Below are positions 1 to 11,279 of a stretch of 11,279 nt of DNA, piece by piece. The notes under the pieces were generated by a model. The model saw nothing but the letters and a program-made list of their open reading frames with translations, was not told the origin of the DNA and searched no databases. The first letter of the stretch is position 1; each line of letters begins with the position of its first letter. The DNA lies in NCBI GenBank assembly GCA_040222015.1, contig JAVJWO010000079.1:1-11279 (forward strand), given 5' to 3'. This DNA comes from Coleofasciculus chthonoplastes F2-STO-03. Its GTDB lineage: Bacteria; Cyanobacteriota; Cyanobacteriia; Cyanobacteriales; Coleofasciculaceae. The translations under genes were made by a program, and so were the position numbers.

Positions 1-66
1 AGCAGGGGGAGCAGGGGAAGCAGGGGGAGCAGGGGAAGCAGGGGGAGCAGGGGAAGCAGGGGGAGC
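1..66. repeat. G-rich tandem repeat: 9-mers AGCAGGGGG / AGCAGGGGA in strict alternation (18-bp period), cut off by the window edge
   Basis: Read directly: 7 full 9-mer units plus AGC. Short tandem repeats of this kind are common in filamentous cyanobacteria. Confidence 0.95.
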
Positions 67-99
67 CATGTTCCAAGACGAGCCATGGAGCGTCTGTGT

Positions 100-165
100 G
101 TAGGGGCGGGTTTAGGGACTAATATTGATTGTTATCCCTAGCTTGGCTGCAAAACCCGCCCCAAC
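100..165. repeat. GTAG-type REP-like inverted repeat (GTAGGGGCGGGTTT...AAACCCGCCCCAAC)
   Basis: Arms 100-113 and 152-165 are reverse complements with 1 mismatch, separated by a 38-nt spacer. The same family occurs at 10775-10840. Confidence 0.9.
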
Positions 166-263
166 CAAATGACAAATGACAAATGACGAATGACAAATGA
201 CGAATGACAAATGACAAATGACAAATGACAAATGACGAATAACAAATGACAAATGACAAATAA
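166..263. repeat. STRR-type heptamer tandem array, 14 units, consensus CAAATGA (variants CGAATGA, CGAATAA, CAAATAA)
   Basis: Counted directly from 166 to 263 with a 7-nt period. The array overlaps the start of the next ORF. Confidence 0.95.
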
Positions 264-777
264 TGAACAGTTAGCACAATGGTTATATCGCCTTGTAGAA
301 ATCCTGCGTAGCCAAGGAAATTCGACATGGCGCAGGTTGGTTCAGACTGTTTCTGGCAAAACGGCTGTCATTGAACTAGATGGAACTCAGTTGCAACTGT
401 GGGCGCAGGGAGATGAGCCGTTGCAGGTTAGCATCGAATCCTTGACAGAACCCCAACCCGTTCACTTTTGCAGCGATGCTGAAACCCTGAGAGATATCAT
501 TACGGGTTCTGTAACATTGGATGCGGCGGTAATGAGTGGCAAAATTTATGTTAGGGGTGATTTACCCGACTTACTGGGTATCAATCAGGTCGTCATGGGC
601 ATTTTAGCCGACAGTGCGATTAATTTACAGTTACAACGCCTCTGGAACGACTTTGATCACCTCTGGTTCCATCCCCCCTCTCCTCCCCCTTGTCAATCCC
701 TTGACCAACAAAAACCATCCTGTGGTTATCTGATCAACCAGATTCCCGCCGACGTACTCAACATTGAAGTGGATTGA
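253..777 (+). CDS. Hypothetical protein, probable SCP2 (sterol carrier protein 2)-like lipid-binding domain
   Basis: 174-aa ORF. The segment VHFCSDAETLRDIITGSVTLDAAVMSGKIYVRGDL resembles the C-terminal half of the SCP2 fold. The start codon lies inside the heptamer array. Confidence 0.65.
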   Translation: MTNNEQLAQWLYRLVEILRSQGNSTWRRLVQTVSGKTAVIELDGTQLQLWAQGDEPLQVSIESLTEPQPVHFCSDAETLRDIITGSVTLDAAVMSGKIYVRGDLPDLLGINQVVMGILADSAINLQLQRLWNDFDHLWFHPPSPPPCQSLDQQKPSCGYLINQIPADVLNIEVD

Positions 778-819
778 CATCACCTGAAAGGGCGATATAC
801 TCTAATTTATCCTTGTCTG

Positions 820-848
820 CTTGGTAAAATTTACGGAGTTTTACCAAG
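820..848. promoter_or_regulatory. Intergenic inverted repeat CTTGGTAAAA-N9-TTTTACCAAG (possible regulator site or hairpin)
   Basis: Perfect 10-bp arms at 820-829 and 839-848, between two co-oriented genes. Confidence 0.4.
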
Positions 849-984
849 ATTCTTAATGAAGATTTAAGATTTTTGACAATTTCGGTTATTGGCGGCGATC
901 GCGCCTATTCTGATATACAGAGCGCCGATTAACGGCGACGCTAACGTTCTGTTCACTCACTTGCCATACCGAGCTAATTATTTT

Positions 985-1278
985 ATGACTACTCTACCTA
1001 CATTGATTCGTTCCCTCGCTTTAACCGCCCTACTCAGCTTTATTGCTCCCGTTGTCCTCTTCTTGGGATTTTTCGCCTTTCTATGCACTATGAGCTGGGT
1101 TCCTGGCTTGGAAACCCTTGGTCAAACAGGCGCAAACGATTTGTTACAATTTCTGGCGATTTTTGGGAACGGCTGTTCCGTGGAAGGGTTGTTCGTGATT
1201 AGCTTAACCTGTAGCTTTGTGGCAGCCTTATTTGATACCTACGCTTTCTATAACTATCAGCATCTCAACAACCACTAA
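985..1278 (+). CDS. Small conserved-type cyanobacterial membrane protein (hypothetical, about 97 aa, two hydrophobic segments)
   Basis: ATG at 985 (MTTLPTLIRSLALTALLSFIAPV...) is preferred over the TTG at 889. Hydrophobic stretches and a C-terminal ...LAIFGNGC...TCSFVAALFDTYAFY motif resemble a cyanobacterial hypothetical family as I recall it. Confidence 0.75.
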   Translation: MTTLPTLIRSLALTALLSFIAPVVLFLGFFAFLCTMSWVPGLETLGQTGANDLLQFLAIFGNGCSVEGLFVISLTCSFVAALFDTYAFYNYQHLNNH

Positions 1279-1362
1279 CATCGACCATTGTAACCAATGA
1301 TTTCCTATATTCGGTTAGATCAACTTTTAGATCACCTTGGGCAACCTGGTTATGGAGCAATC

Positions 1363-1395
1363 AGTCTCCCGTCTTTTTTAACCTGACGGGAGACT
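1363..1395. terminator. Stem-loop between convergent genes; likely terminator or 3'-end stabiliser
   Basis: Perfect 11-bp stem AGTCTCCCGTC / GACGGGAGACT with an 11-nt loop, 23 nt past the glgB stop. No long U-tract on either side. Confidence 0.65.
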
Positions 1396-1418
1396 TCTAG
1401 CTAACCTAGCATAGTCAA

Positions 1419-3719
1419 TCAAGACTGATCCGATTTTAGAGCATCGGCTGTCTTCTCGCGGTTGAGCTTGAGAATTAACACACCCAGGGGAGGCAAACAC
1501 AAGTCCAGAGAATAGGGTTGATTGTGGAACCACCATTCATCCGTCCACTTACCGCCTAAATTCCCCATATTACTCCCACCATACTCGCGAGCATCACTGT
1601 TAAACAGTTCCGTGTAGAAGCCCACTTCTGGAACCCCGACTCGATAGTGGCTGTGGGGCTGAGGTGTGAAATTGCAAACCGCGACAACAAACTCTTCAGA
1701 ATCCTTAGCACGGCGGATAAATGCCACCACGCTATGGCGATTGTCACTACAATCAATCCATTCAAACCCGGCTTCAGCATAATCTTGAGTATAGAGAGCA
1801 GATTCTCGTCGATAGACCTGATTCAAGTCACTCAGAAACAGCTTCAACTGCTGATGGGGTTCGTATTGCAGTAAATGCCATTCTAAATCGCCCCAGACAT
1901 TCCACTCACTCCACTGACCGAACTCCATGCTCATAAACAGGGTGTTCTTGCCGGGATGAGTGAACATATAGGTAAACAAGCAACGGATATTGGCAAACTT
2001 TTGCCACTCATCCCCAGGCATTTTGCCCAGCATATTACTCTTACCATGCACAATCTCATCGTGAGACAACGCCAGCATATAGTTTTCAGCATGGTGATAC
2101 CACATACTGAAGGTGATATTATTCTGGTGGAACTGGCGGAACCAAGGGTCCATGTGGAAATAATCCAGCATGTCGTGCATCCAACCCATGTTCCACTTCA
2201 AATTAAAGCCTAATCCGCCAACGTAGGTGGGCCAAGACACCATGGGCCAATCCGTTGACTCTTCGGCAATGGAGAGGATACCAGGAAAATAGCTAAAGAT
2301 TACATGATTCGCCTGTCGCAGGAAATCGGCGGCTTCAATGTTCTCCCTCCCCCCATACTGGTTCGTCACCCATTCTCCCGGTTGACGACAATAGTCCAGG
2401 TACAGCATCGAGGCGACAGCATCCACACGAATTCCATCGATGTGGTATTTGTCAAACCAGAACAAGGCGTTGGACACCAGGAAGTTACGGACTTCGTTGC
2501 GGTTATAGTTGAAAACTAAGGTTCCCCACTCTTTATGTTCACCCTTACGCGGGTCAGCATGTTCATACAAGTGAGTCCCATCAAAGAATGCTAAACCATG
2601 ACCATCTTTGGGGAAATGACCCGGTACCCAGTCCACAATCACGCCAATCCCATTCTGGTGACACTGATCCACGAAATACATAAAATCGTCAGGTGTCCCA
2701 TAACGAGAGGTGCAGGCAAAGTATCCGGTTACCTGATAGCCCCAAGAGCCGTCAAACGGATGCTCGGCGACGGGGAGTAACTCAATATGAGTAAATCCCA
2801 AGTCTTTAACATAAGGAATTAAGCGATCCGCCAATTCCCGATAGGTGAGAAATCGCGCTCCCGGTTTGAGATCAGACACCATCACCACGGGTTCAGGCTT
2901 GCCATCCGCGCCAATGGCGGGTTCGGCTGAAGAACCATGCAGCCACGAGCCTAAATGCATTTCATAGATAGAAATTGGCTGAGTCAGCGTATCGGTATGG
3001 CGGCGCTGCTCCATCCAGTCTTGATCATTCCAGGTATAGGTATCAAGATCGGCAATAATCGAGGCGGTTTTGGGGCGGATTTCTTGGCGGAAACCATAGG
3101 GGTCAGATTTTTCGTAAATATGCCCGTCATAGTTTTTGATTTCATACTTGTAATGGTCGCCAACTGCCACTTCTGGGATAAACAGTTCCCAAATACCAGT
3201 GTCACCCTTCCGCATTTGGTGCTTGCGCCCATCCCAGTGGTTAAAATCGCCTAAAACCGAAGCGTTGCGAGCATTCGGAGCCCAAACGGCAAAGTAGACA
3301 CCCTGAACTCCATCTATTTCCGTGGGATGGGCTCCTAGTTTCTCGTAGATGCGATGATGATTCCCTTCGGCAAATAAATGCCGATCAAAGTCGGTTAAGC
3401 GTGGCGAACGGAAGGCATACGGATCGTAGATAACCCGCTCATGTTCGCCTTCTTTGAGGCGTAACTGGTAGTTTGCCAGTTCCTCTATATCGATCTGACA
3501 TTCAAAAAAGTGGGGATGATGCACTGATTGCATCGGATAGTCTTGGCGTTGTTCTGGCAGCACAACCCACACGGCGTCAGCATTCGGGAAATACACCCGC
3601 ACTGCCCAGGTGGTCTTTCCATCCTGTTCTAATCGGTGTGGACCCAGTATCTCAAAGGGGTCGTGATGTTGATTCCAGACAATTCGGTCAATCTGTTCAG
3701 GGGCAATCATGGGAAACAT
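1419..3719 (-). CDS. glgB: 1,4-alpha-glucan (glycogen) branching enzyme, GH13
   Basis: 766 aa with N-terminal [12 protein letters not shown]48 [25 protein letters not shown], catalytic [15 protein letters not shown] and LSHDE, and KWNMGWMHD. Confidence 0.99.
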
Positions 3720-3906
3720 CGAGGTATCTACTTCAGTGATTGGAAAATGGGTGTTAAATAACTTTAATATTTATATACTTTTTTTGTTTTTTCTACACAT
3801 TCGGGGGAAATTGGGGTATAAGCAAGAGTTATAACCTGTCGGTTTGGTCACCGATCCAGGGCTATCCTTGAGGACAGGGTGCGGCTTCCGGCGTTTTTTG
3901 CTTCGG

Positions 3907-4197
3907 CTAAAACGGTGTGACTGTCCGCCACAGATCAAGCAGTTGCAGCACAAAAACATTGTGCTGGATCTCAGTAGCGAGTTCCGGGGGGGTTGACCGC
4001 TGGGCTAATTCAGCTTTAAGTTGGGCGTATTCTGCGGCTGTAAGCAGTTCCCCATCGATAGGCGATCGCGCTTCGGTGATTATCTCGGTTCTCCACACCT
4101 CTTCGGGTACGTCATCTGGGGGAGGTAACGCCAAAGTCGGTTGAGCCACCCAACCCATTAATCCCAAACAGATACTAAAAAATATACCCTTTTCCAC
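3907..4197 (-). CDS. Conserved-type cyanobacterial hypothetical exported protein (about 96 aa)
   Basis: A GTG start at 4197 gives a signal-peptide-like N-terminus (KGIFFSICLGLMGWVAQPTLA) followed by LPPPDDVPEEVWRTEIITEARSPIDG..LTAAEYAQL. The start is uncertain; the ORF is open up to 4299. Confidence 0.75.
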   Translation of the reverse strand: MEKGIFFSICLGLMGWVAQPTLALPPPDDVPEEVWRTEIITEARSPIDGELLTAAEYAQLKAELAQRSTPPELATEIQHNVFVLQLLDLWRTVTPF

Positions 4198-4423
4198 GCT
4201 TTTAAGCTCAAAATCGTTTCGAGTGTACACAAAGAGGTAGCATCCTACATCTGTTCTGAGTGTAAGCCATAGCTGATCATGTATCCGACATCGTAACACT
4301 ATGGCGCCGAGTCAGAGTATCATATCGGGTGCGAACCTGCCCTAATTCGCGCGATCGCTTCGGAATCCCAAAACCCTGATATTCCGACACAGATACCTGC
4401 TTGCATCAAAATGGGGTGTGTGT

Positions 4424-4488
4424 GTAGGGGCGAGCCGCTTGCACTAATGAACAACTCTATTCCATTCAATTTGTTCGGCTCGCCCTAT
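4424..4488. repeat. GTAG-type REP-like inverted repeat (GTAGGGGCGAGCCG...CGGCTCGCCCTAT)
   Basis: Perfect 10-bp core GGGCGAGCCG (4428-4437) / CGGCTCGCCC (4476-4485) with a 38-nt spacer. Confidence 0.8.
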
Positions 4489-4518
4489 ATTGAACCGTTT
4501 TAGTCAACCCCCAAAAAC

Positions 4519-4552
4519 ATTGTAGAGACGTTGCATGCAACGTCTCTACAAT
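4519..4552. repeat. Perfect 34-bp palindrome with core GTAGAGACGTTGCATGCAACGTCTCTAC (REP-like dispersed repeat)
   Basis: ATTGTAGAGACGTTGCA/TGCAACGTCTCTACAAT is self-complementary. The identical 30-bp core recurs at 11069-11098. Confidence 0.95.
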
Positions 4553-4705
4553 CTGAAAGGACAAGGAATTTAGACATAATTAGGGTTAAATTTGGCTCCA
4601 TCGTTGTATGCTATAGAAGTTATGAATAGTTCTATCTTAATTGATGGGTGAGTGTGATCGGCGCTCAAGCGCAACTACGACCATTTTCGCATAAGACAGG
4701 GAATT

Positions 4706-5560
4706 ATGAAGGTTAGTTTTGGATTTGGGTGCATCGCCAGCCTGATTCTATTGGCTAGTTATCCAGTGCTGACAATATTGACAGAAGCGACTCCTGCTGT
4801 AGCGGATGATACGGGAGTGATTCGGAAAGTTGTACTCCTGGATTTATGGGAAGGGGGTAATGGGTTTCGGTTGTCTCCAGAAGTTACTCAAATTACAGTT
4901 GTTGATAATTACGCGATCGCGCAATGGTTTTGGGACAATAGTACTGGAGAGACGGTTGTGATCAATCAGAATAATCAATGGCACGCGATCGCGTCAACTC
5001 AAACTCCATTTACTCCTAGCACCCTGGCTAGTTATGGGATTCCTCATCAGATGGCGCGACAGTTAATTAATCGCGATCGCGCTAATCCTAGCACACCATC
5101 AGAACAACCTCCCGTAGCGAATATATTCACCCCTGTCTTACCGCAACTCCAGCAACAAACCGATACATTGATTTTATTACCCAGCCAAATGCCGAAGTTT
5201 AAACAGCGGATTTATGTGAATAGTTTTAGGTCACCCCATACCTATAGTATTGCCTTAAGATTAAAGCAAAACTGCAATGGAATCCCGGATTGTACTGTAG
5301 GTGCATTTAGCGCTACGCCAGTGAATCCCAACTATTCTCCCAGCGATGGATTTATCAAAAAAATCCCTCTCACCAATAATATATGGGGATACTTTACACC
5401 AAGTCGATGTCAGGGTTTTTGTACACCATCGGTGATTGAATGGGTGTGGCGAGATACCCATTACCGAATTGCCTTAAAAGGGATGGGGACAGATGTCAAT
5501 CAAGCCGAAGCGATGATGGTCAACATCGCTAATTCTGCGATTGAAGCTGGACCGCGTTAA
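4706..5560 (+). CDS. Hypothetical secreted or periplasmic two-domain protein (284 aa)
   Basis: AGGGA RBS-like sequence upstream, signal peptide ending TPAVA-DD, Pro-rich linker (NPSTPSEQPP), and a C-terminal domain with two close Cys pairs. Contains three HIP1 sites. Confidence 0.85.
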   Translation: MKVSFGFGCIASLILLASYPVLTILTEATPAVADDTGVIRKVVLLDLWEGGNGFRLSPEVTQITVVDNYAIAQWFWDNSTGETVVINQNNQWHAIASTQTPFTPSTLASYGIPHQMARQLINRDRANPSTPSEQPPVANIFTPVLPQLQQQTDTLILLPSQMPKFKQRIYVNSFRSPHTYSIALRLKQNCNGIPDCTVGAFSATPVNPNYSPSDGFIKKIPLTNNIWGYFTPSRCQGFCTPSVIEWVWRDTHYRIALKGMGTDVNQAEAMMVNIANSAIEAGPR

Positions 5561-5618
5561 CATGGAACTTTTAAATCAACCTTTTCCAATAATACAACGT
5601 TGGTAAGACTGACTAAAA

Positions 5619-5813
5619 TTAAACCTTTACAAGAATCCGCTCAAAACTTGGGTTGACATAGACAATGGGATGATCAGGGGCTTGAGCATCGGTAATTACG
5701 ATACCATTACTCGCCGCCGCGATCGCACGTTCGAGCAGGTGTAATTTTTCTTCAGTCTGTTTGCGGGCTGTGATATCGTGGGCAACGGTATAAATTAACC
5801 CTTCGAGTCTCAC
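5619..5813 (-). pseudogene. Fragment of a PAS/PAC sensor gene (end of a PAC motif plus start of a LOV-like PAS domain)
   Basis: EGLIYTVAHDITARKQTEEKL is a PAC end with coiled linker. AIAAASNGIVITDAQAPDHPIVYVNPSFERI is a PAS start that breaks off where TGY would follow. Both ends are missing. Confidence 0.85.
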
Positions 5814-5913
5814 ACCTTGCTATATTTATCCACTTGGGCGGCTAGAACCCCAACGATGGTACGGTGGTTATAGCGCTTCGCGCTGGTATAGTGACAAGTT
5901 AGGATAGAGTAAA

Positions 5914-6192
5914 CTAAGATAAAAGTTGTCTTCCATTTGGAGGTATGAGCAAATAAGTCACTGGGGAACCCCCATGGAAGTAATGCATAATGTCGGACTT
6001 ATTGATATGAAAGTAATCGATTGGGCTGTCATCTGTGAGCAGATAATACATCGAAGTCATGGCTGAACGTTTTTGCCCCACTCGATCGGTTTCAATCATC
6101 ATGCTAGAACGATATGCCTCAGAGTAGTAACCTCCCTCCGGGTGCATTTGCAAGGAGAGCTGTTGGATTAGATCATGATTGTTCATTGTCAT
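5914..6192 (-). pseudogene. 3'-truncated cupin, Cupin_5/DUF985 family
   Basis: LSLQMHPEGGYYSEAYRS, TSMYYLL and FHINKSDIMHYFHGG match the N-terminal half of DUF985. It stops at 92 aa and lacks the C-terminal ..LV.C.V.PGF.F.DF motif present in the intact paralogue. Confidence 0.85.
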
Positions 6193-6402
6193 TTAATTGT
6201 GTTAATAAAACAATCAAGTTAATCAGGGCAATTATAATCTTACACTTAAGGCTTTTTTTGTGCAATATTATGGAAGATTTGTCTGAGTTATAGCTAATTT
6301 GGTTTGTTTGTAAAAAAAATATTAATTAAACCGTTATGGGATATAGATAGGATGTAATATGTTCGATACATCAATAAAAACCTGAGACCCAGAAGTATTT
6401 GT
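6193..6402. promoter_or_regulatory. AT-rich divergent promoter region between the truncated cupin and the AHCY-like gene
   Basis: 210-bp AT-rich spacer between divergent starts, with TATAAT at 6233-6238 on the plus strand. Exact promoters are not resolved. Confidence 0.5.
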
Positions 6403-9039
6403 ATGACGCTTGATCGAGAACTCGCCAATGACTACCTTTATTTTTTAGCCGAAGAACTGGCGGCTGAGGCTTATAAGTCGGACAGCATTATTCCCTTAGA
6501 GAAAAAACTGATTATCAGGGAGCAACATAACTTCATCTTATCGGGGTCTGACCGAATTTTAGATGCTGTCCCCGAAAAAGAAGACCTTGATCTCGCCTTC
6601 TTTGCCACTCCTGACATCCTGGAAACGGTTCTCAAACCCGGAACGCCGTCTGGGGCGATAATTTTGCATACTCTCTTCTCCCAAATTGGGAATAGCCGTC
6701 TACTCGAAGAGGTTTCTTCTGATCAATTTGAAATTATCGGCACTCCTGAATCATTAGGGCGAGGGGGTAGCTTAGTTGTGCATAAGCAGTACGACTCACA
6801 ACAGCAAACCTTTTTTATTCAGTGGCAGGTAAAGGGCATACATTATGATCAAGCCGCTTCAACCACAACCGCTGATATTTTTATCGATATCGCAGAGGAT
6901 CAACAGTCGGTTCACAAACAGGTTAAATACTTGATATCAAGCATAAATATGCCGATTCAGCAGCATATTTATACTAATTTGCCGGAAAAATCCAGCCTGC
7001 ACCAGCAGAATCCCTATCATCTGTTGGTACTTCATCATCGCACCCATGAAGTGGTGATGACGTTACAAACCCTAGAGGCATTAGGATTTACCATTGATGC
7101 CTTTATTGGCATTCCCTATGGTGAAAGCAATTGGCCCACCATGAGAATGTTAGATTATGTGTCGAGTCAAAGCTATCGATGTTTACGCATGATTCAACAT
7201 CCGATTGAACCGACGCAATACCGATTTGACTTTAAGCAATCCTCTTTTCTTTTGAGTGCTGATGAAGCGTTATTTACCGACTTATATAACGACTCGAACG
7301 TGAATCGGGACTATATGAGTGCAATGACAACCTTAGTGGAAACCGAACTGGTTCGCAGTGTTCAACGATGTCTCCAAGAAAAGACCAAATTTTTGATTTA
7401 TGAAGATGGCGGATATGCCATCCCTCTGATTTATCAAATTTATAACGATTCCAGCCATCCTTGGCATTCCCTGTTCAAACAAGCTGTGGATGAAACGATA
7501 ATAGTTGGTGCCGTTGAAGTGACAGGGGCTGGAGAACGCAGAGACTTGGCAGCAATTGAATCGAATCAAGGAAAAGCCTTGCTGCCGGTACTCTCAACCG
7601 CACGGGATGACATCAAAACTATTTTTGAGGCAAAAGGAGTTTCACAAGCAATTATTGACTCCACGTCAACGGCATTAGGTCGATTAGGATTGCCCACATT
7701 TGAAACCCGTAAAGTGGCAGTTATTGGTGGCAATGGGGCAATCGGTACTCGACTGGTTGAAGAACTTACCGAAATGCAGAATAGCACCAGTAATGTGTTT
7801 GCCATAGATATTGTCGATCACGCCTTTTATCGAGAAATTGACAGCGAAAGGTTTCCCTATGCAGCCATAAAAGTTGATTACTTAAACTTGGGTCGATATG
7901 TTGTCGAAGACAACTGTTTACCTGTGATTATCGATTTGTCGTTTGGCAATCGTAGTCTGCACCTATACAACCAGACGCTGGAGAAATCCGTGCGCGAGTT
8001 CTTTTCGCCCTCTTCCCCCTACGCCTCCTTTACGGAATTAGTCTTTACCAATTCTTTCCCACATCCAGACATTTCCTTGGAGATGCTATGGCAAGAACTG
8101 GACAGATTGAATCAGTTATGGGATTCTATCAGACAGGAGTCTGGGTATGTGGCAGAGAAAATGGAATTCTTGCCCAATGGACAAGGGATGATTCAATTCT
8201 TTAGTAACGGCAATTTATCCAAAAAAGTCACGTTATTAGTCTCAGAACAGGTACTCTCGTTCAAAAAAGTGACGCGCCTGATTCAGAACCATGTTGATAC
8301 CATAATTGGCATGACGGGGCTACCTGTATTCGATGAGTATGACATCAATGCCTTTTTAACCCGAAATAACAATGAAAATCCGGTTGATGAACTTGTCCTG
8401 GTTAGTGGTTCATCCAAGGATTATGAATTTAAAAAAGCCATTGCTTTTCTGGATGAATTGTTAGCGGTTCTTTCCGAAAAGACGATAGATATTCAGCAAC
8501 AGTTGACCGGGTATACGAGGTGTTATGAACAACAGATGTGCTTTATCGCCGACGATGACATGGATATGATCCGTCAAGTTTTGGCTTCTGGGAAAACACC
8601 TGATGCCCTCGTTGCCCAACTTAAACAATATCCTGAATTGCTCAAGATTAGTGGATTGAAAGATGCCCAGCCTGATACCTGGGCGTCTGGTTTCGCGGCA
8701 TGGATTCGGGGTAAGATTAAAAGCAGTCTTTCCATTCGTAAATCGATTCACCAGGATATTGGTACAATCTATCATATTCAGTTTAACGGGCAGTCGAAAC
8801 GATTAGTCCTGTTAGCCGATGGCTTTGTGATCAACTTTTTTGCCAAGCATGAGAAAGGCGTAAAAACTGAATATATTGATCCCATTGTCACGATGCAACT
8901 GCTAGGATTAGTGAAACTGGCGACGACGGAAAAAGCAATAGAACCCGGGGTTTATCGCATGGCGCAACAGATCAAAACTGAGGATATCAATCTGTTTTGG
9001 CAGGCACTTGATGATAAGAGCCGCCCGATACAATTTTAG
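6403..9039 (+). CDS. Highly divergent, enlarged S-adenosylhomocysteine hydrolase (AHCY/SahH)-like NAD-dependent protein, 878 aa
   Basis: AHCY-like motifs occur in the correct order: NMP..; LLVLHHRTHEVVMTLQTLEALG; FLIYEDGGY; IVGAVEVTGAG; LPVLSTARDDIKTIFE; Rossmann KVAVIGGNGAIG..VFAID; VDTIIGMTG; LVSGSSKDYEF; KRLVLLADGFVINF; Q..GLV.L..IEPGVYRM. Confidence 0.85.
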   Translation: MTLDRELANDYLYFLAEELAAEAYKSDSIIPLEKKLIIREQHNFILSGSDRILDAVPEKEDLDLAFFATPDILETVLKPGTPSGAIILHTLFSQIGNSRLLEEVSSDQFEIIGTPESLGRGGSLVVHKQYDSQQQTFFIQWQVKGIHYDQAASTTTADIFIDIAEDQQSVHKQVKYLISSINMPIQQHIYTNLPEKSSLHQQNPYHLLVLHHRTHEVVMTLQTLEALGFTIDAFIGIPYGESNWPTMRMLDYVSSQSYRCLRMIQHPIEPTQYRFDFKQSSFLLSADEALFTDLYNDSNVNRDYMSAMTTLVETELVRSVQRCLQEKTKFLIYEDGGYAIPLIYQIYNDSSHPWHSLFKQAVDETIIVGAVEVTGAGERRDLAAIESNQGKALLPVLSTARDDIKTIFEAKGVSQAIIDSTSTALGRLGLPTFETRKVAVIGGNGAIGTRLVEELTEMQNSTSNVFAIDIVDHAFYREIDSERFPYAAIKVDYLNLGRYVVEDNCLPVIIDLSFGNRSLHLYNQTLEKSVREFFSPSSPYASFTELVFTNSFPHPDISLEMLWQELDRLNQLWDSIRQESGYVAEKMEFLPNGQGMIQFFSNGNLSKKVTLLVSEQVLSFKKVTRLIQNHVDTIIGMTGLPVFDEYDINAFLTRNNNENPVDELVLVSGSSKDYEFKKAIAFLDELLAVLSEKTIDIQQQLTGYTRCYEQQMCFIADDDMDMIRQVLASGKTPDALVAQLKQYPELLKISGLKDAQPDTWASGFAAWIRGKIKSSLSIRKSIHQDIGTIYHIQFNGQSKRLVLLADGFVINFFAKHEKGVKTEYIDPIVTMQLLGLVKLATTEKAIEPGVYRMAQQIKTEDINLFWQALDDKSRPIQF

Positions 9040-9043
9040 CCTC

Positions 9044-9118
9044 GTAGGTTGGGTTAAGGAACGAAACCCAACAGGCTAACGATGGTGTTGGGTTTCGCTT
9101 TCGCTCTACCCAACCTAC
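9044..9118. repeat. REP doublet (REPIN-like): two inverted GTAGGTTGGGT...ACCCAAC units
   Basis: Unit 1 spans 9044-9072 and unit 2 (reverse) spans 9087-9118. Each is a hairpin and the pair forms a long imperfect stem. It starts 5 nt after the AHCY-like stop codon. Confidence 0.9.
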
Positions 9119-9135
9119 TTACTACTTGCTACATT

Positions 9136-9163
9136 TTGAAGTTCGGAGTCTGGGATGTATAAT
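9136..9163 (+). promoter_or_regulatory. Putative sigma70-type promoter for the SRPBCC gene
   Basis: TTGAAG (9136-9141), 16-nt spacer, perfect TATAAT (9158-9163), about 75 nt upstream of the ATG at 9239. Confidence 0.5.
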
Positions 9164-9238
9164 AGGGCAACGAGTAGCTGAAACATAGATTCTGTCTAAT
9201 CAGCTCTTGGATAATAGAGTAGAGGGAAAATTGACATA

Positions 9239-9676
9239 ATGGTTAGAGTGTTTACAAGTTCTGTTATCAATGCTCCTATTGATAACGTATGGATGAAGAT
9301 CAGAGATTTTAATGCTCTGCCTAACTGGCATCCAGCTATTGCTAACAGTTTCATAGAAGATGGTGAGCCCAGCGATAAAGTTAACTGTATTCGTCATTTC
9401 AATCTCAAAGAAGGGGGTACTATTCGCGAAAAGCTATTGGCTCTCAGCGACTTAGATTATTTATTCTCCTACTCAATTCTAGAATCACCCATGCCCTTAA
9501 AGAACTATGTGGCAACATTGACGCTTAAACCAATCACAGATGGAGATTTAACTTATGCTGAATGGACAGCCCTATTTGACTGTGATATCCAAGCCTCAAA
9601 GAATCTGGTTAAATTAATAGGTGATGGTGTTTTTTCGACAGGTTTCAACTCATTGAACCAGATATTTAGGGAATAG
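9239..9676 (+). CDS. SRPBCC/START superfamily protein (Polyketide_cyc2, MxaD-like)
   Basis: 145 aa with SSVINAPIDNVWMKIRDFNALPNWHP, IREKLLALSD, YSILESPMPLKNYVATLTL and a C-terminal helix GVFSTGFNSL. AGAGGG RBS-like sequence upstream. Confidence 0.93.
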   Translation: MVRVFTSSVINAPIDNVWMKIRDFNALPNWHPAIANSFIEDGEPSDKVNCIRHFNLKEGGTIREKLLALSDLDYLFSYSILESPMPLKNYVATLTLKPITDGDLTYAEWTALFDCDIQASKNLVKLIGDGVFSTGFNSLNQIFRE

Positions 9677-9820
9677 GGAGAATTGCTAACATAAGAGATG
9701 CACGGGATGGGAGCGAGAGGCTAAAACTCGATAAACTAGAAGAAGTGTAAAGTGACGCAAGGCGGTTACAAGGCGGATTTTGGATCAAGGGTTTTGATGA
9801 TGCCAAAATGCTCAGGCATT

Positions 9821-9838
9821 GCATTGCCGTGCCCCTAC
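9821..9838. repeat. Right-half remnant of a GTAGGGGCACGGCA..TGCCGTGCCCCTAC palindrome
   Basis: GCATTGCCGTGCCCCTAC matches the right half of the palindrome that is interrupted at 10459-10934. Confidence 0.7.
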
Positions 9839-9870
9839 AGATAAAATTATGATTTCTAAGGAGAAACTCT

Positions 9871-10380
9871 ATGTCAACCAAAAACGCTAGCTATTGGATT
9901 GAAAAGCTTGGACTTGAAAAACATCCAGAAGGAGGGTACTACAAGGAGACTTATCGTTGTGAGCAAGAAATACCTCACGAAAATCTACCCAAACGATTTG
10001 AAGACTCTCGGAATTCTGCAACCGCCATCTATTTTTTATTAGAGGGAACGGATTTTTCAGCGCTGCATCGCCTCGATTCCGATGAGTTATGGCATTTTTA
10101 TGCCGGGAGTTCACTAACGGTTCATGTGATTGAGGAATCGGGAAACTATTGTCCGATCAAGTTAGGTGATAATTTTGACGAGGGTGAGGTGTTTCAAGCC
10201 TTAGTCAAAGCGGGATGTTGGTTTGGCTCGACGGTGAATGATCCGCAATCTTATGCACTGGTGGGGTGTACAGTACATCCCGGTTTTGATTTTAATGATT
10301 TTGAGTTGGCTAAACGAGAGGAGTTAACTAAGCTTTATCCTCAACATCAGTCTCTGATTGAGAAAATGACACGAATTTGA
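9871..10380 (+). CDS. Cupin domain protein, Cupin_5/DUF985 family (YML079W/Cff1-like)
   Basis: 169 aa with LGLEKHPEGGYYKETYR, TAIYFLL, SALHRLDSDELWHFYAG, FQALVKAGCWFG and YALVGCTVHPGFDFNDFELA. AAGGAG RBS upstream. Confidence 0.95.
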   Translation: MSTKNASYWIEKLGLEKHPEGGYYKETYRCEQEIPHENLPKRFEDSRNSATAIYFLLEGTDFSALHRLDSDELWHFYAGSSLTVHVIEESGNYCPIKLGDNFDEGEVFQALVKAGCWFGSTVNDPQSYALVGCTVHPGFDFNDFELAKREELTKLYPQHQSLIEKMTRI

Positions 10381-10476
10381 TAATTTTAGAGGCTACAAAT
10401 TATCTAGATTCTCAGACTCTTCCGAAATAGGGAGTTGTTTTGATTTAGCCACATCGGTTAGGGACACGGCATTGCC

Positions 10477-10915
10477 CATTGGTGTCAACTTAAGGTAAAA
10501 AGCTCTTAGAGCGGGGGGTGTAGGGCTTACAGGTGTAGGTTTTTTATTTTATGGTTGGGACTAGACTTGGAGGACAAGGATGGAAAGAAGACAAGGGGGA
10601 AAAACCGTACAAAATTAGGTTCGGTCAAACTCACTTCTAAAAGCCGAAACGCCCGATTTTTCGTTCTCACTCTTCCTTGTCTACGGTCGCTGAGCGAAGT
10701 CGAAGTGATGGTCTACCTGTCTCCCTTGTCTTACCTCAACCCCAATCTTAAAAAACCTACCCTTATGAGGGGGTGTAGGGGCGGGTTTTACAGATAACTT
10801 ATGGCACCCAACTGATAACTTGAATAAACCCGCCCTTTACAAGAACCAAGGGAGCAGAAACCCCGTAGCTGAAAATTAGAATGGGTAAGGGTTATGGCTT
10901 AAGTTGACACGGGTG
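10477..10915. mobile_element. Non-autonomous MITE or IS remnant (439 bp) with 18-bp terminal inverted repeats and 9-bp target duplication, inserted in a REP-like palindrome
   Basis: Left end CATTGGTGTCAACTTAAG (10477-10494) and right end CTTAAGTTGACACGGGTG (10898-10915) match at 15/18 positions. Flanks are GGCATTGCC (10468-10476) and GGCGTTGCC (10916-10924). No transposase ORF inside. Confidence 0.8.
10775..10840. repeat. GTAG-type REP-like inverted repeat, same family as 100-165, nested inside the MITE
   Basis: GTAGGGGCGGGTTT (10775-10788) ... AAACCCGCCCTTTAC (10826-10840) with a 37-nt spacer. Confidence 0.9.
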
Positions 10916-11068
10916 GGCGTTGCCGTGCCCCTACCCACCATATCCCCTAAGGTTTCCAACTCTCACAGGAAAAACGTGATTGGGTACAAGAGTAACAACG
11001 ATGGAAAATACTCCAAGTATACAGACAACAAAATAAGAGCAGCAGAAGTATTCCAGGTTATTCTATGT

Positions 11069-11098
11069 TGTAGAGACGTTGCATGCAACGTCTCTACA
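11069..11098. repeat. Second copy of the perfect palindrome TGTAGAGACGTTGCATGCAACGTCTCTACA
   Basis: Identical to 4521-4550 and located 20 nt downstream of the EF-hand gene stop codon. Confidence 0.95.
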
Positions 11099-11118
11099 CC
11101 CCTTATTCAGAGCCTAAT

Positions 11119-11279
11119 TTAGTAAGGACCAAAGAACCAGTTTCCAGGTGCCTGTGGATCATCACTCGCATGGAATTGTCGCAGTAATTCGACTACTTCT
11201 TCTTTGGATAGATGACCGTCGCCATTTAAATCTAACTTAGGAAAGATTTCCTCCGCTACATCTTCAGAAAGGTGCCAAC
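11119..11279 (-). CDS. EF-hand calcium-binding protein (calerythrin/bacterial calmodulin-like), 3' end only
   Basis: Manual translation: ...WHLSEDVAEEIFPKLDLNGDGHLSKEEVVELLRQFHASDDPQAPGNWFFGPY*. Canonical EF-hand loop DLNGDGHLSKEE and a calerythrin-like tail DDP.APGNWFFGP. Not in the ORF track because its start is outside the window. Confidence 0.92.
   Translation of the reverse strand, partial: WHLSEDVAEEIFPKLDLNGDGHLSKEEVVELLRQFHASDDPQAPGNWFFGPY

Follow-up and report, generated by a model that had tools for sequence, protein, structure and literature searches.

The DNA stretch analysed here (the window: 11,279 nucleotides, positions 1 to 11,279 of the forward strand of contig JAVJWO010000079.1, assembly GCA_040222015.1, from Coleofasciculus chthonoplastes F2-STO-03) carries an uninterrupted open reading frame (ORF) at 6403..9039 on the + strand, encoding an 878-aa protein predicted to adopt the fold of S-adenosylhomocysteine (SAH) hydrolase (AHCY or SAHH) but lacking the gate of that enzyme. 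An N-terminal alpha+beta domain (residues 10-182; 6430..6948, +), conserved in the family with invariant P31, P82, W141, K144 and G145, precedes an AHCY-type substrate-binding domain (residues 183-412; 6949..7638, +) holding HHRTHE (H55/T57/E59 of AHCY), GIPYG, EDGGY (D131), EVT, K405 and E409. The Rossmann NAD-binding domain follows (7639..8847, +), with GGNGAIG at 442-448 and D469; it is split by insertions at 477-618 and 691-780, and its gate loop S668-G-S-S-K672-D-Y-E675 replaces N-x-G-H-F-D-x-E. The protein ends in a C-terminal hinge and helix (8848..9036, +; EKGVKTEYID), in which H353 becomes V820, Q832 is kept and the tail is shorter than in canonical AhcY.

The doubled size stems from a 175-aa N-terminal domain and from insertions at 259-306, 348-360, 477-575, 583-618 and 691-780, about 290 aa in total, the 48-aa one at 259-306 sitting in the substrate-binding domain. 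Residues 10-182 were modelled as a separate alpha+beta domain (predicted local distance difference test, pLDDT, 85.9) with no clear structural match for this 175-aa region: the best VIA-align hit was MAJIN at Z 4.8, and the RelE/YoeB-like and pilin structures that appear here and there below it (Z about 3-4) do not rise above noise. Such failed matching of a model does not demonstrate a new fold. Homologues of the domain among shorter proteins were not found, the ESM Atlas gave no usable match, and a search for longer fused forms found none, which is weak evidence. The genome holds one copy of the divergent gene, and its ratio of nonsynonymous to synonymous substitution rates (0.14-0.18 against five cyanobacterial orthologues) indicates purifying selection.

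The likeness to AHCY, read by eye in a preliminary description of this ORF, is faint in profile comparisons. A Pfam scan gave no AdoHcyase match at E<=1, whereas NCBIfam TIGR00936 (ahcY) did match (E 3.8e-6), at 26 bits against a cut-off of 497.6, which places the protein outside the AhcY equivalog; a single-sequence search of the PDB did not match AHCY, and a profile search gave 7r39 at no better than E 0.038. The structural comparison agreed with the description. With an AlphaFold model built from 44 sequences (pLDDT 89.5; predicted template modelling score 0.87), Foldseek and VIA-align both returned SAHH chains first: AHCY/SAHH-family chains made up all 39 Foldseek matches listed (best E 2.9e-10), and residues 170-878 aligned best with the SAHH 6gbn in VIA-align (Z 21.4, root-mean-square deviation 3.4, 390 residues aligned; runner-up family 12.5). 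The model thus shows two Rossmann-type domains in AHCY order and a C-terminal hinge, which makes the protein a member of the AHCY structural superfamily. As had been suspected, it is not the housekeeping enzyme: a canonical 425-aa AhcY (P0075) is encoded elsewhere in the same genome (G000:C90), and 15 of the 17 other carrier genomes encode an ahcY above the TIGR00936 cut-off, the remaining two having frameshifted pieces in one case and a contig-edge fragment alone in the other. The protein is predicted to work like AHCY or AgmF yet falls outside the AhcY equivalog; AgmF, the angustmycin C dehydratase, has an AHCY fold, ignores SAH and is proposed to end its reaction in elimination (PMC8599513).

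We equated residues by alignment with P0075, whose numbering is that of mouse AHCY (taken from PMC4647836) plus one from D131 on; the human numbers for N181, N191, E243 and N346 derive from this offset and not from a paper. Kept are H212 (H55), T214 (T57), E216 (E59), D335 (D131), T374 (T157), K405 (K186) and N811 (N346), together with G445 and G448 of the GxGxxG NAD loop and D469 at the position of E243. Changed are V373 (E156), A400 (N181), E409 (D190), A410 (N191), S671 (H301), K672 (F302) and V820 (H353). Every equivalence proposed earlier holds in this alignment. Roles in SAHHs are described for H55 and D131, for H301 (water), T57 and E59 (adenine) and E156 and D190 (2'-OH), and the G300-H301-F302 gate is called 'completely conserved' in these enzymes (PMC4647836); the HxTxE motif is described in bioRxiv 10.1101/2023.05.12.540488.

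Conservation was assessed over 74 sequences, the query and 73 homologues, three of them fragments that lack some columns (hence n=71 for these). H212 (71/71) and D335, K405, E409 and T374 (74/74 each) are invariant, as are N811 and E675 (E305), so that the redox core named in the preliminary description is intact and under purifying selection. The HxTxE adenine motif is also retained, with E216 in 71/71 and T or S at position 214 in 71/71. S670, S671 and K672 are each present in 74/74, and S-S-K therefore replaces the Gly-His-Phe gate throughout the family. The C79/N80 channel region is G-I-P-Y-G in all members, the E156 column holds V in 69 and G in 5 of 74, and in all members N191 becomes A, S, G or T, N181 becomes A, and H353 becomes V or A. 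New conserved residues appear at H211 (71/71) and R213 (70/71), replacing L54 and M56, and at Y239 (71/71); by alignment to AHCY, rather than by superposition or docking, these three fall on residues of or beside the 5' channel. The family has thus kept its machinery for oxidation and for the C4'/C5' steps, along with the motif that reads adenine. The earlier claim that substrate contacts differ is upheld for E156 and the gate and needs refining for the adenine contacts T57 and E59, which are kept; the base is therefore likely still adenine, the change lying at the 5' and 2' positions. The newly conserved residues carry cationic or hydroxyl groups at positions that align with the 5' channel or next to it, which suggests an anionic, phosphoryl 5' group.

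Changes at E156, N181, N191 and H301, sensor-type fusions (cyclic-nucleotide-binding, or cNMP, and FHA domains) and large insertions could instead mark a catalytically dead sensor or scaffold of the IRBIT/AHCYL type, binding NAD(H) or an adenine nucleotide. We regard this as very improbable: at about 30% identity the residues that carry the chemistry do not vary at all, in contrast to the drifting insertions (1-2 invariant sites each; just 2 and 1 near-invariant sites, over the 74 sequences, in the two large ones), and an output domain is not attached.

Over all readings, the protein probably carries out redox chemistry on an adenine compound other than SAH. The most likely single form, put forward tentatively and at somewhat below even confidence, is an NAD-cycling 3'-oxidation followed by beta-elimination of the 5'-phosphoryl group from an adenine nucleotide, either adenosine monophosphate (AMP) or an AMP-bearing metabolite, and not from SAH. 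In this scheme T214 and E216 would hold the adenine, K405 and E409 would oxidise the 3'-OH with NAD+, and D335 would remove H4'; the anionic 5' group, bound by H211, R213, Y239 and S670-S671-K672, would then depart, and NADH would reduce C3' back, releasing a 4',5'-didehydro nucleoside, unless a slow rehydration follows. Rehydration is expected to be absent or slow, since two residues hold the attacking water in SAHH and one of them, His301, is missing here. The same loss fits a good leaving group, for which the His would be dispensable if rehydration does not occur; AgmF, whose leaving group is water, needs it. Dehydroquinate synthase offers a precedent for NAD-assisted beta-elimination of phosphate.

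Several points weigh against phosphoryl elimination. The change of E156 to V removes a 2'-OH contact and is poorly explained by it; the substrate may be 2'-deoxy or 2'-substituted. That R213, Y239 and K672 lie at the 5' site is inferred from the AHCY alignment. By analogy, the inactivity of AgmF H299A means that the enzyme cannot work exactly like AgmF. Several NAD contacts are altered (T158 to G or V, T159 to A, N191 to A) and the C-terminal tail is about 9-20 residues short; tightly bound NAD is therefore not assured, and these changes would also fit an exchangeable NAD or a weak enzyme, although the new invariant N444 and R450 may offset them. Copies are often broken (L004, L007, G234, G291). 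Finally, the core family has no conserved nucleotide-metabolism neighbour, an adenine phosphoribosyltransferase gene (apt) lying by it in two related loci only (L019, L037).

The retention of H55, T57, E59, D131, T157, K186 and an acid at position 190 would also suit a second, cNMP-regulated hydrolase or lyase of SAH or another 5'-thioether with a rebuilt channel, in which the Lys and Arg could hold an amino-acid carboxylate in place of phosphate. This appears improbable given that the G-H-F gate, present in all SAHHs compared (PMC4647836), and C79/N80 are replaced in every member, and that this genome and most other carriers also encode a canonical ahcY. Among 60 selected neighbours scanned from 17 loci, we found no conserved methyltransferase neighbour, no cyclase family and no known defence gene as a recurrent neighbour.

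Most of the family measures 1000-1040 aa, and the 878-aa protein is a natural cNMP-less form. Precomputed annotation places an N-terminal PF00027 cNMP-binding domain in 63/73 homologues (checked on 6), with the phosphate-binding pattern FGE-x(7-9)-R in 53 of the 63; among the other ten, six have an Arg in altered surroundings, and the four that lack it all belong to the cyanobacterial clade. The domain is absent from the 878-aa protein, and no trace of it was found upstream. In a quick, midpoint-rooted tree the cNMP-less forms nest inside a cNMP-bearing cyanobacterial clade, and with L005 included at least two changes are needed on the starred branches; a single loss was rejected when L005 joined the tree. 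On this tree the sensor was thus lost more than once (at least twice in cyanobacteria, including here) with the enzyme core retained. The 17 GTDB loci come from cyanobacteria, Chloroflexota, Acidobacteriota, Planctomycetota, Polyangiaceae, Methylococcales and Coxiellaceae. Its distribution is scattered: the gene occurs in 8/301 genomes of the order and in 0/4 other genomes of the genus, and copies are broken or partial in 3/7 other carriers within the order. Literature searches for a description of this AHCY-like family, of incomplete coverage, returned nothing relevant.

A cyclic-nucleotide domain this frequent, its phosphate-binding motif intact in most members, is reminiscent of Pycsar and CBASS and could mean that the family forms nucleotide-depleting or -modifying defence effectors turned on by a cyclic nucleotide, the present copy being a sensor-less derivative; the SAVED and kinase fusions of the wider clade described below, the patchy spread and the frequent breakage fit such a role. 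It is nonetheless doubtful. PADLOC matches were limited to the cNMP part, with none for the 878-aa protein (P0001), the neighbours scanned include neither a recurrent cyclase nor a known defence gene, an effector that is toxic would hardly persist after losing its sensor time and again, and a search of viral contigs and plasmids with the 878-aa protein gave no match. Under the phosphoryl-elimination scheme, the cNMP-binding domain would gate activity in most relatives and the present copy would be unregulated by cNMP.

The likely partner of the gene is an intact Cupin_5/DUF985 gene of the YML079w/Cff1 type (9871..10380, +), whose E20 aligns with Cff1 E44. Upstream lies a truncated, inverted Cupin_5 remnant of 92 aa (5914..6192, -), a 72% match to the cupin of L009; in cNMP-bearing relatives the corresponding Cupin_5 gene sits head-to-tail upstream, and the inverted remnant is a sign of rearrangement upstream of the ORF. 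These two sequences, the only Cupin_5 sequences of the genome, both flank the ORF. Across GTDB a cupin gene is adjacent or within about 2.5 kb in 13/17 loci, and in two of the other four hardly any sequence is available upstream; such a cupin also occurs in 7/11 metagenome loci with >=1 kb upstream (24 were fetched, several nearly duplicating one another or a GTDB locus). With five cupin queries, the search may have overlooked divergent cupins. Cyanobacterial loci carry Cupin_5 in three paralogous forms and other phyla a tandem Cupin_2 pair. Cupin_5 is found in 8/8 cyanobacterial carriers, each with a copy at the locus, against 2 of the 20 listed non-carriers, both partial matches, although the relatives compared are not independent. 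Cff1 is needed for the autoinducer-2 (AI-2) mimic 4-hydroxy-5-methyl-3(2H)-furanone (MHF) and resembles sugar isomerases and epimerases (PMC8092285, PMC13267403), and a GDP-bound DUF985 structure is cited in PMC8704077. In the proposed scheme the product that the enzyme releases, or the sugar of that product, would then be isomerised by the linked cupin.

Linkage to cupins of two unrelated families and the resemblance of Cff1 to RmlC and sugar epimerases (PMC8092285) also speak for a true NAD+-dependent 3'-dehydrogenase or epimerase, in which NAD exchanges and a 3'-keto nucleoside, nucleotide or nucleotide sugar is released for RmlC-like epimerisation by the cupin before re-reduction. The losses of T158, T159, N191 and the C-terminal tail are in keeping with this, and E156 to V would free C2'; yet H55 and D131, which serve C4'/C5' elimination and not oxidation, are invariant, and a reductase is not a conserved neighbour, leaving this reading unlikely, if worth some weight. 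More speculative still is a LuxS-independent furanone route, to which we give little credence: 5' elimination from an adenine nucleotide or SAH would give 4',5'-didehydroadenosine, loss of adenine would give 5-deoxy-pentos-4-ulose, judged from the formulae an isomer of the AI-2 precursor 4,5-dihydroxy-2,3-pentanedione (DPD), and a Cff1-like cupin would convert this to DPD/MHF, under cyclic-nucleotide control in most carriers. LuxS was not found in 5/5 carriers tested, which is uninformative by itself. If true, this route would name a substrate for Cupin_5/Cff1 enzymes and a first function for the gate-less AHCY clade.

Between the ORF and the intact cupin lies an SRPBCC/Polyketide_cyc2 gene (9239..9676, +), found at this place in the window and L005 only and absent from L004, and hence an optional partner. 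A PAS-domain gene remnant (5620-5815, -; motif recognised by eye; 73% DNA match to contig C2) abuts the truncated cupin. Contigs from three metatranscriptomes overlap the ORF in part, but in the one dataset whose contigs are near-identical they extend over the upstream remnant as well, so this does not demonstrate transcription of the ORF; scans for promoters and terminators scored close to the chance level (15 vs 10.5; 7 vs 4.0). The window also holds a glycogen branching enzyme gene, glgB (1419-3719, -), a housekeeping neighbour named by eye from its translation; cyanobacterial short tandem repeats with 9-nt and 7-nt units (1-75, 152-275), the 7-nt array extending into the start of an SCP2-like ORF at 253; and palindromic intergenic repeats (4519-4552, 11068-11098, 9044-9121), for which BLAST against the genome gave about 200 and about 44 matches.

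Other loci have neighbours of their own. The apt gene lies directly downstream in L019 (12874-15077) and L037 (1274-1792), with a PRPP-synthase-like (phosphoribosyl pyrophosphate) gene next in L019 only; an angustmycin-like cluster suggested by this pair was rejected, since the only other locus with apt is the related L037. In Microseira wollei (L004:15407-19381, -) a 1324-aa ORF with a TcdA/TcdB pore-forming domain (Pfam E 1.6e-87) lies close to two unannotated large ORFs (4756-7371, 7671-9650) and to that genome's broken copy of the gene. In Richelia (L016:712-2240, 12802-13644) the gene has EF-hand, GNAT-like, TerB-like and cyclodipeptide-synthase-like genes nearby; the GNAT-like/EF-hand pair is also found downstream in L004 (13368-14517), a region that window positions 11053-11279 match.

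The family sits inside a wider gate-less AHCY-like clade. Searching 1.84 billion representatives with a profile yielded 347 matches at E<=0.001, the best 150 of which form the basis of our description of the clade. Those beyond the core family are AHCY-like with the signature P-Y, EDGG, E[HQV]T, K..E and S-S/T-K (41 aligned), and signature patterns sought anywhere in the sequence were found in 87 and 77 of 91 longer matches. The 878-aa protein shares P-Y at the C79/N80 region, ExT with E156 replaced, K186, D190 changed to E and the S-S/T-K gate, and profile A3, of distant members, scores it at 216 bits vs 84 for canonical AhcY. Fusions found in 60 scanned proteins (48 distant or fragmentary-length members and 12 others) include FHA (3), protein kinase (2), SAVED (1), zinc ribbon (1), EF-hand (1) and zinc alcohol dehydrogenase (1). 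The FHA fusions are P0106, P0117 and P0141; Ser/Thr kinase-like domains lie N-terminal to the AHCY-like module in P0160, P0189, P0143, P0161, P0195 and P0199; and P0194, a SAVED fusion to a gate-less AHCY-like domain, is a candidate undescribed cyclic-oligonucleotide effector. Of 65 plasmid records matched by the SAVED-fused protein, two were examined; both are Streptomyces plasmid clusters, which are distant and bear on the clade alone. One (L056:4275-12032, NZ_CP109170.1) is an operon of ATP-binding protein, GNAT, gate-less AHCY-like, methyltransferase, phosphoribosyltransferase and HAD genes beside TIGR02679/02680 genes, and looks like a nucleoside-modifying or defence cluster; the second has NUDIX and phosphotransferase genes with a distant clade member.

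AHCY is regarded as a family with a single reaction, apart from the exception described for AgmF. The locus studied here points to a conserved subfamily, spread over several phyla, that pairs an intact redox core and a rebuilt 5' channel with a cyclic-nucleotide switch and a recurring cupin partner. Around this subfamily lies a much larger uncharacterised clade, in which SAVED, FHA and kinase domains occur as fusions. As a natural sensor-less copy, the 878-aa protein is a convenient assay target that should need no unknown activator. Identifying its substrate could show what hundreds of mislabelled proteins do, and possibly what Cff1-type cupins act on.

The protein shares with AhcY/SAHH (TIGR00936; PDB 6gbn, 7o5l, 1li4) its fold, domain order, H55, T57, E59, D131, T157, K186, N346 and E305, the GxGxxG loop and the acidic residue ending strand 2. 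It differs in the gate (G-H-F to S-S-K), in E156 to V, D190 to E and the C79/N80 region to GIPYG, in the replacement of N191, N181, T158, T159 and H353, and in its 175-aa N-terminal domain and about 290 aa of insertions, besides the cNMP domain of most relatives. With AgmF it shares the AHCY fold; AgmF does not accept SAH, and the reaction proposed for it runs from oxidation of an adenine nucleoside through elimination to re-reduction, the enzyme recycling its own NAD+. AgmF, however, keeps all five key residues, needs its gate His (H299), is of normal size and belongs to a biosynthetic cluster (PMC8599513), whereas here a Ser stands at the gate-His column, cationic residues lie there and an agm-type cluster is lacking. 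PenD is not supported as an epimerase; a review calls PenD and PenG SAH hydrolases (PMC12648386). The neighbouring cupin is of the same family as Cff1/YML079w and keeps the Glu equivalent to E44, but an AHCY-like partner is absent from the available description of Cff1 (PMC8092285, PMC13267403), and non-cyanobacterial loci have Cupin_2 pairs instead. Relatives share with Pycsar and CBASS effectors (cNMP-TIR, SAVED fusions) an N-terminal cyclic-nucleotide sensor on an enzyme, including the one SAVED fusion in the clade, yet differ in having no cyclase among the neighbours scanned and an enzyme module without a PADLOC match, and the present copy is sensor-less. Finally, the archaeal S-inosylhomocysteine hydrolases (HxExK; bioRxiv 10.1101/2023.05.12.540488) likewise combine an AHCY fold with a changed substrate range and a shortened C-terminus, but they alter the base-reading motif and keep the gate, while the present family keeps an adenine-type HxT/SxE and alters the gate.

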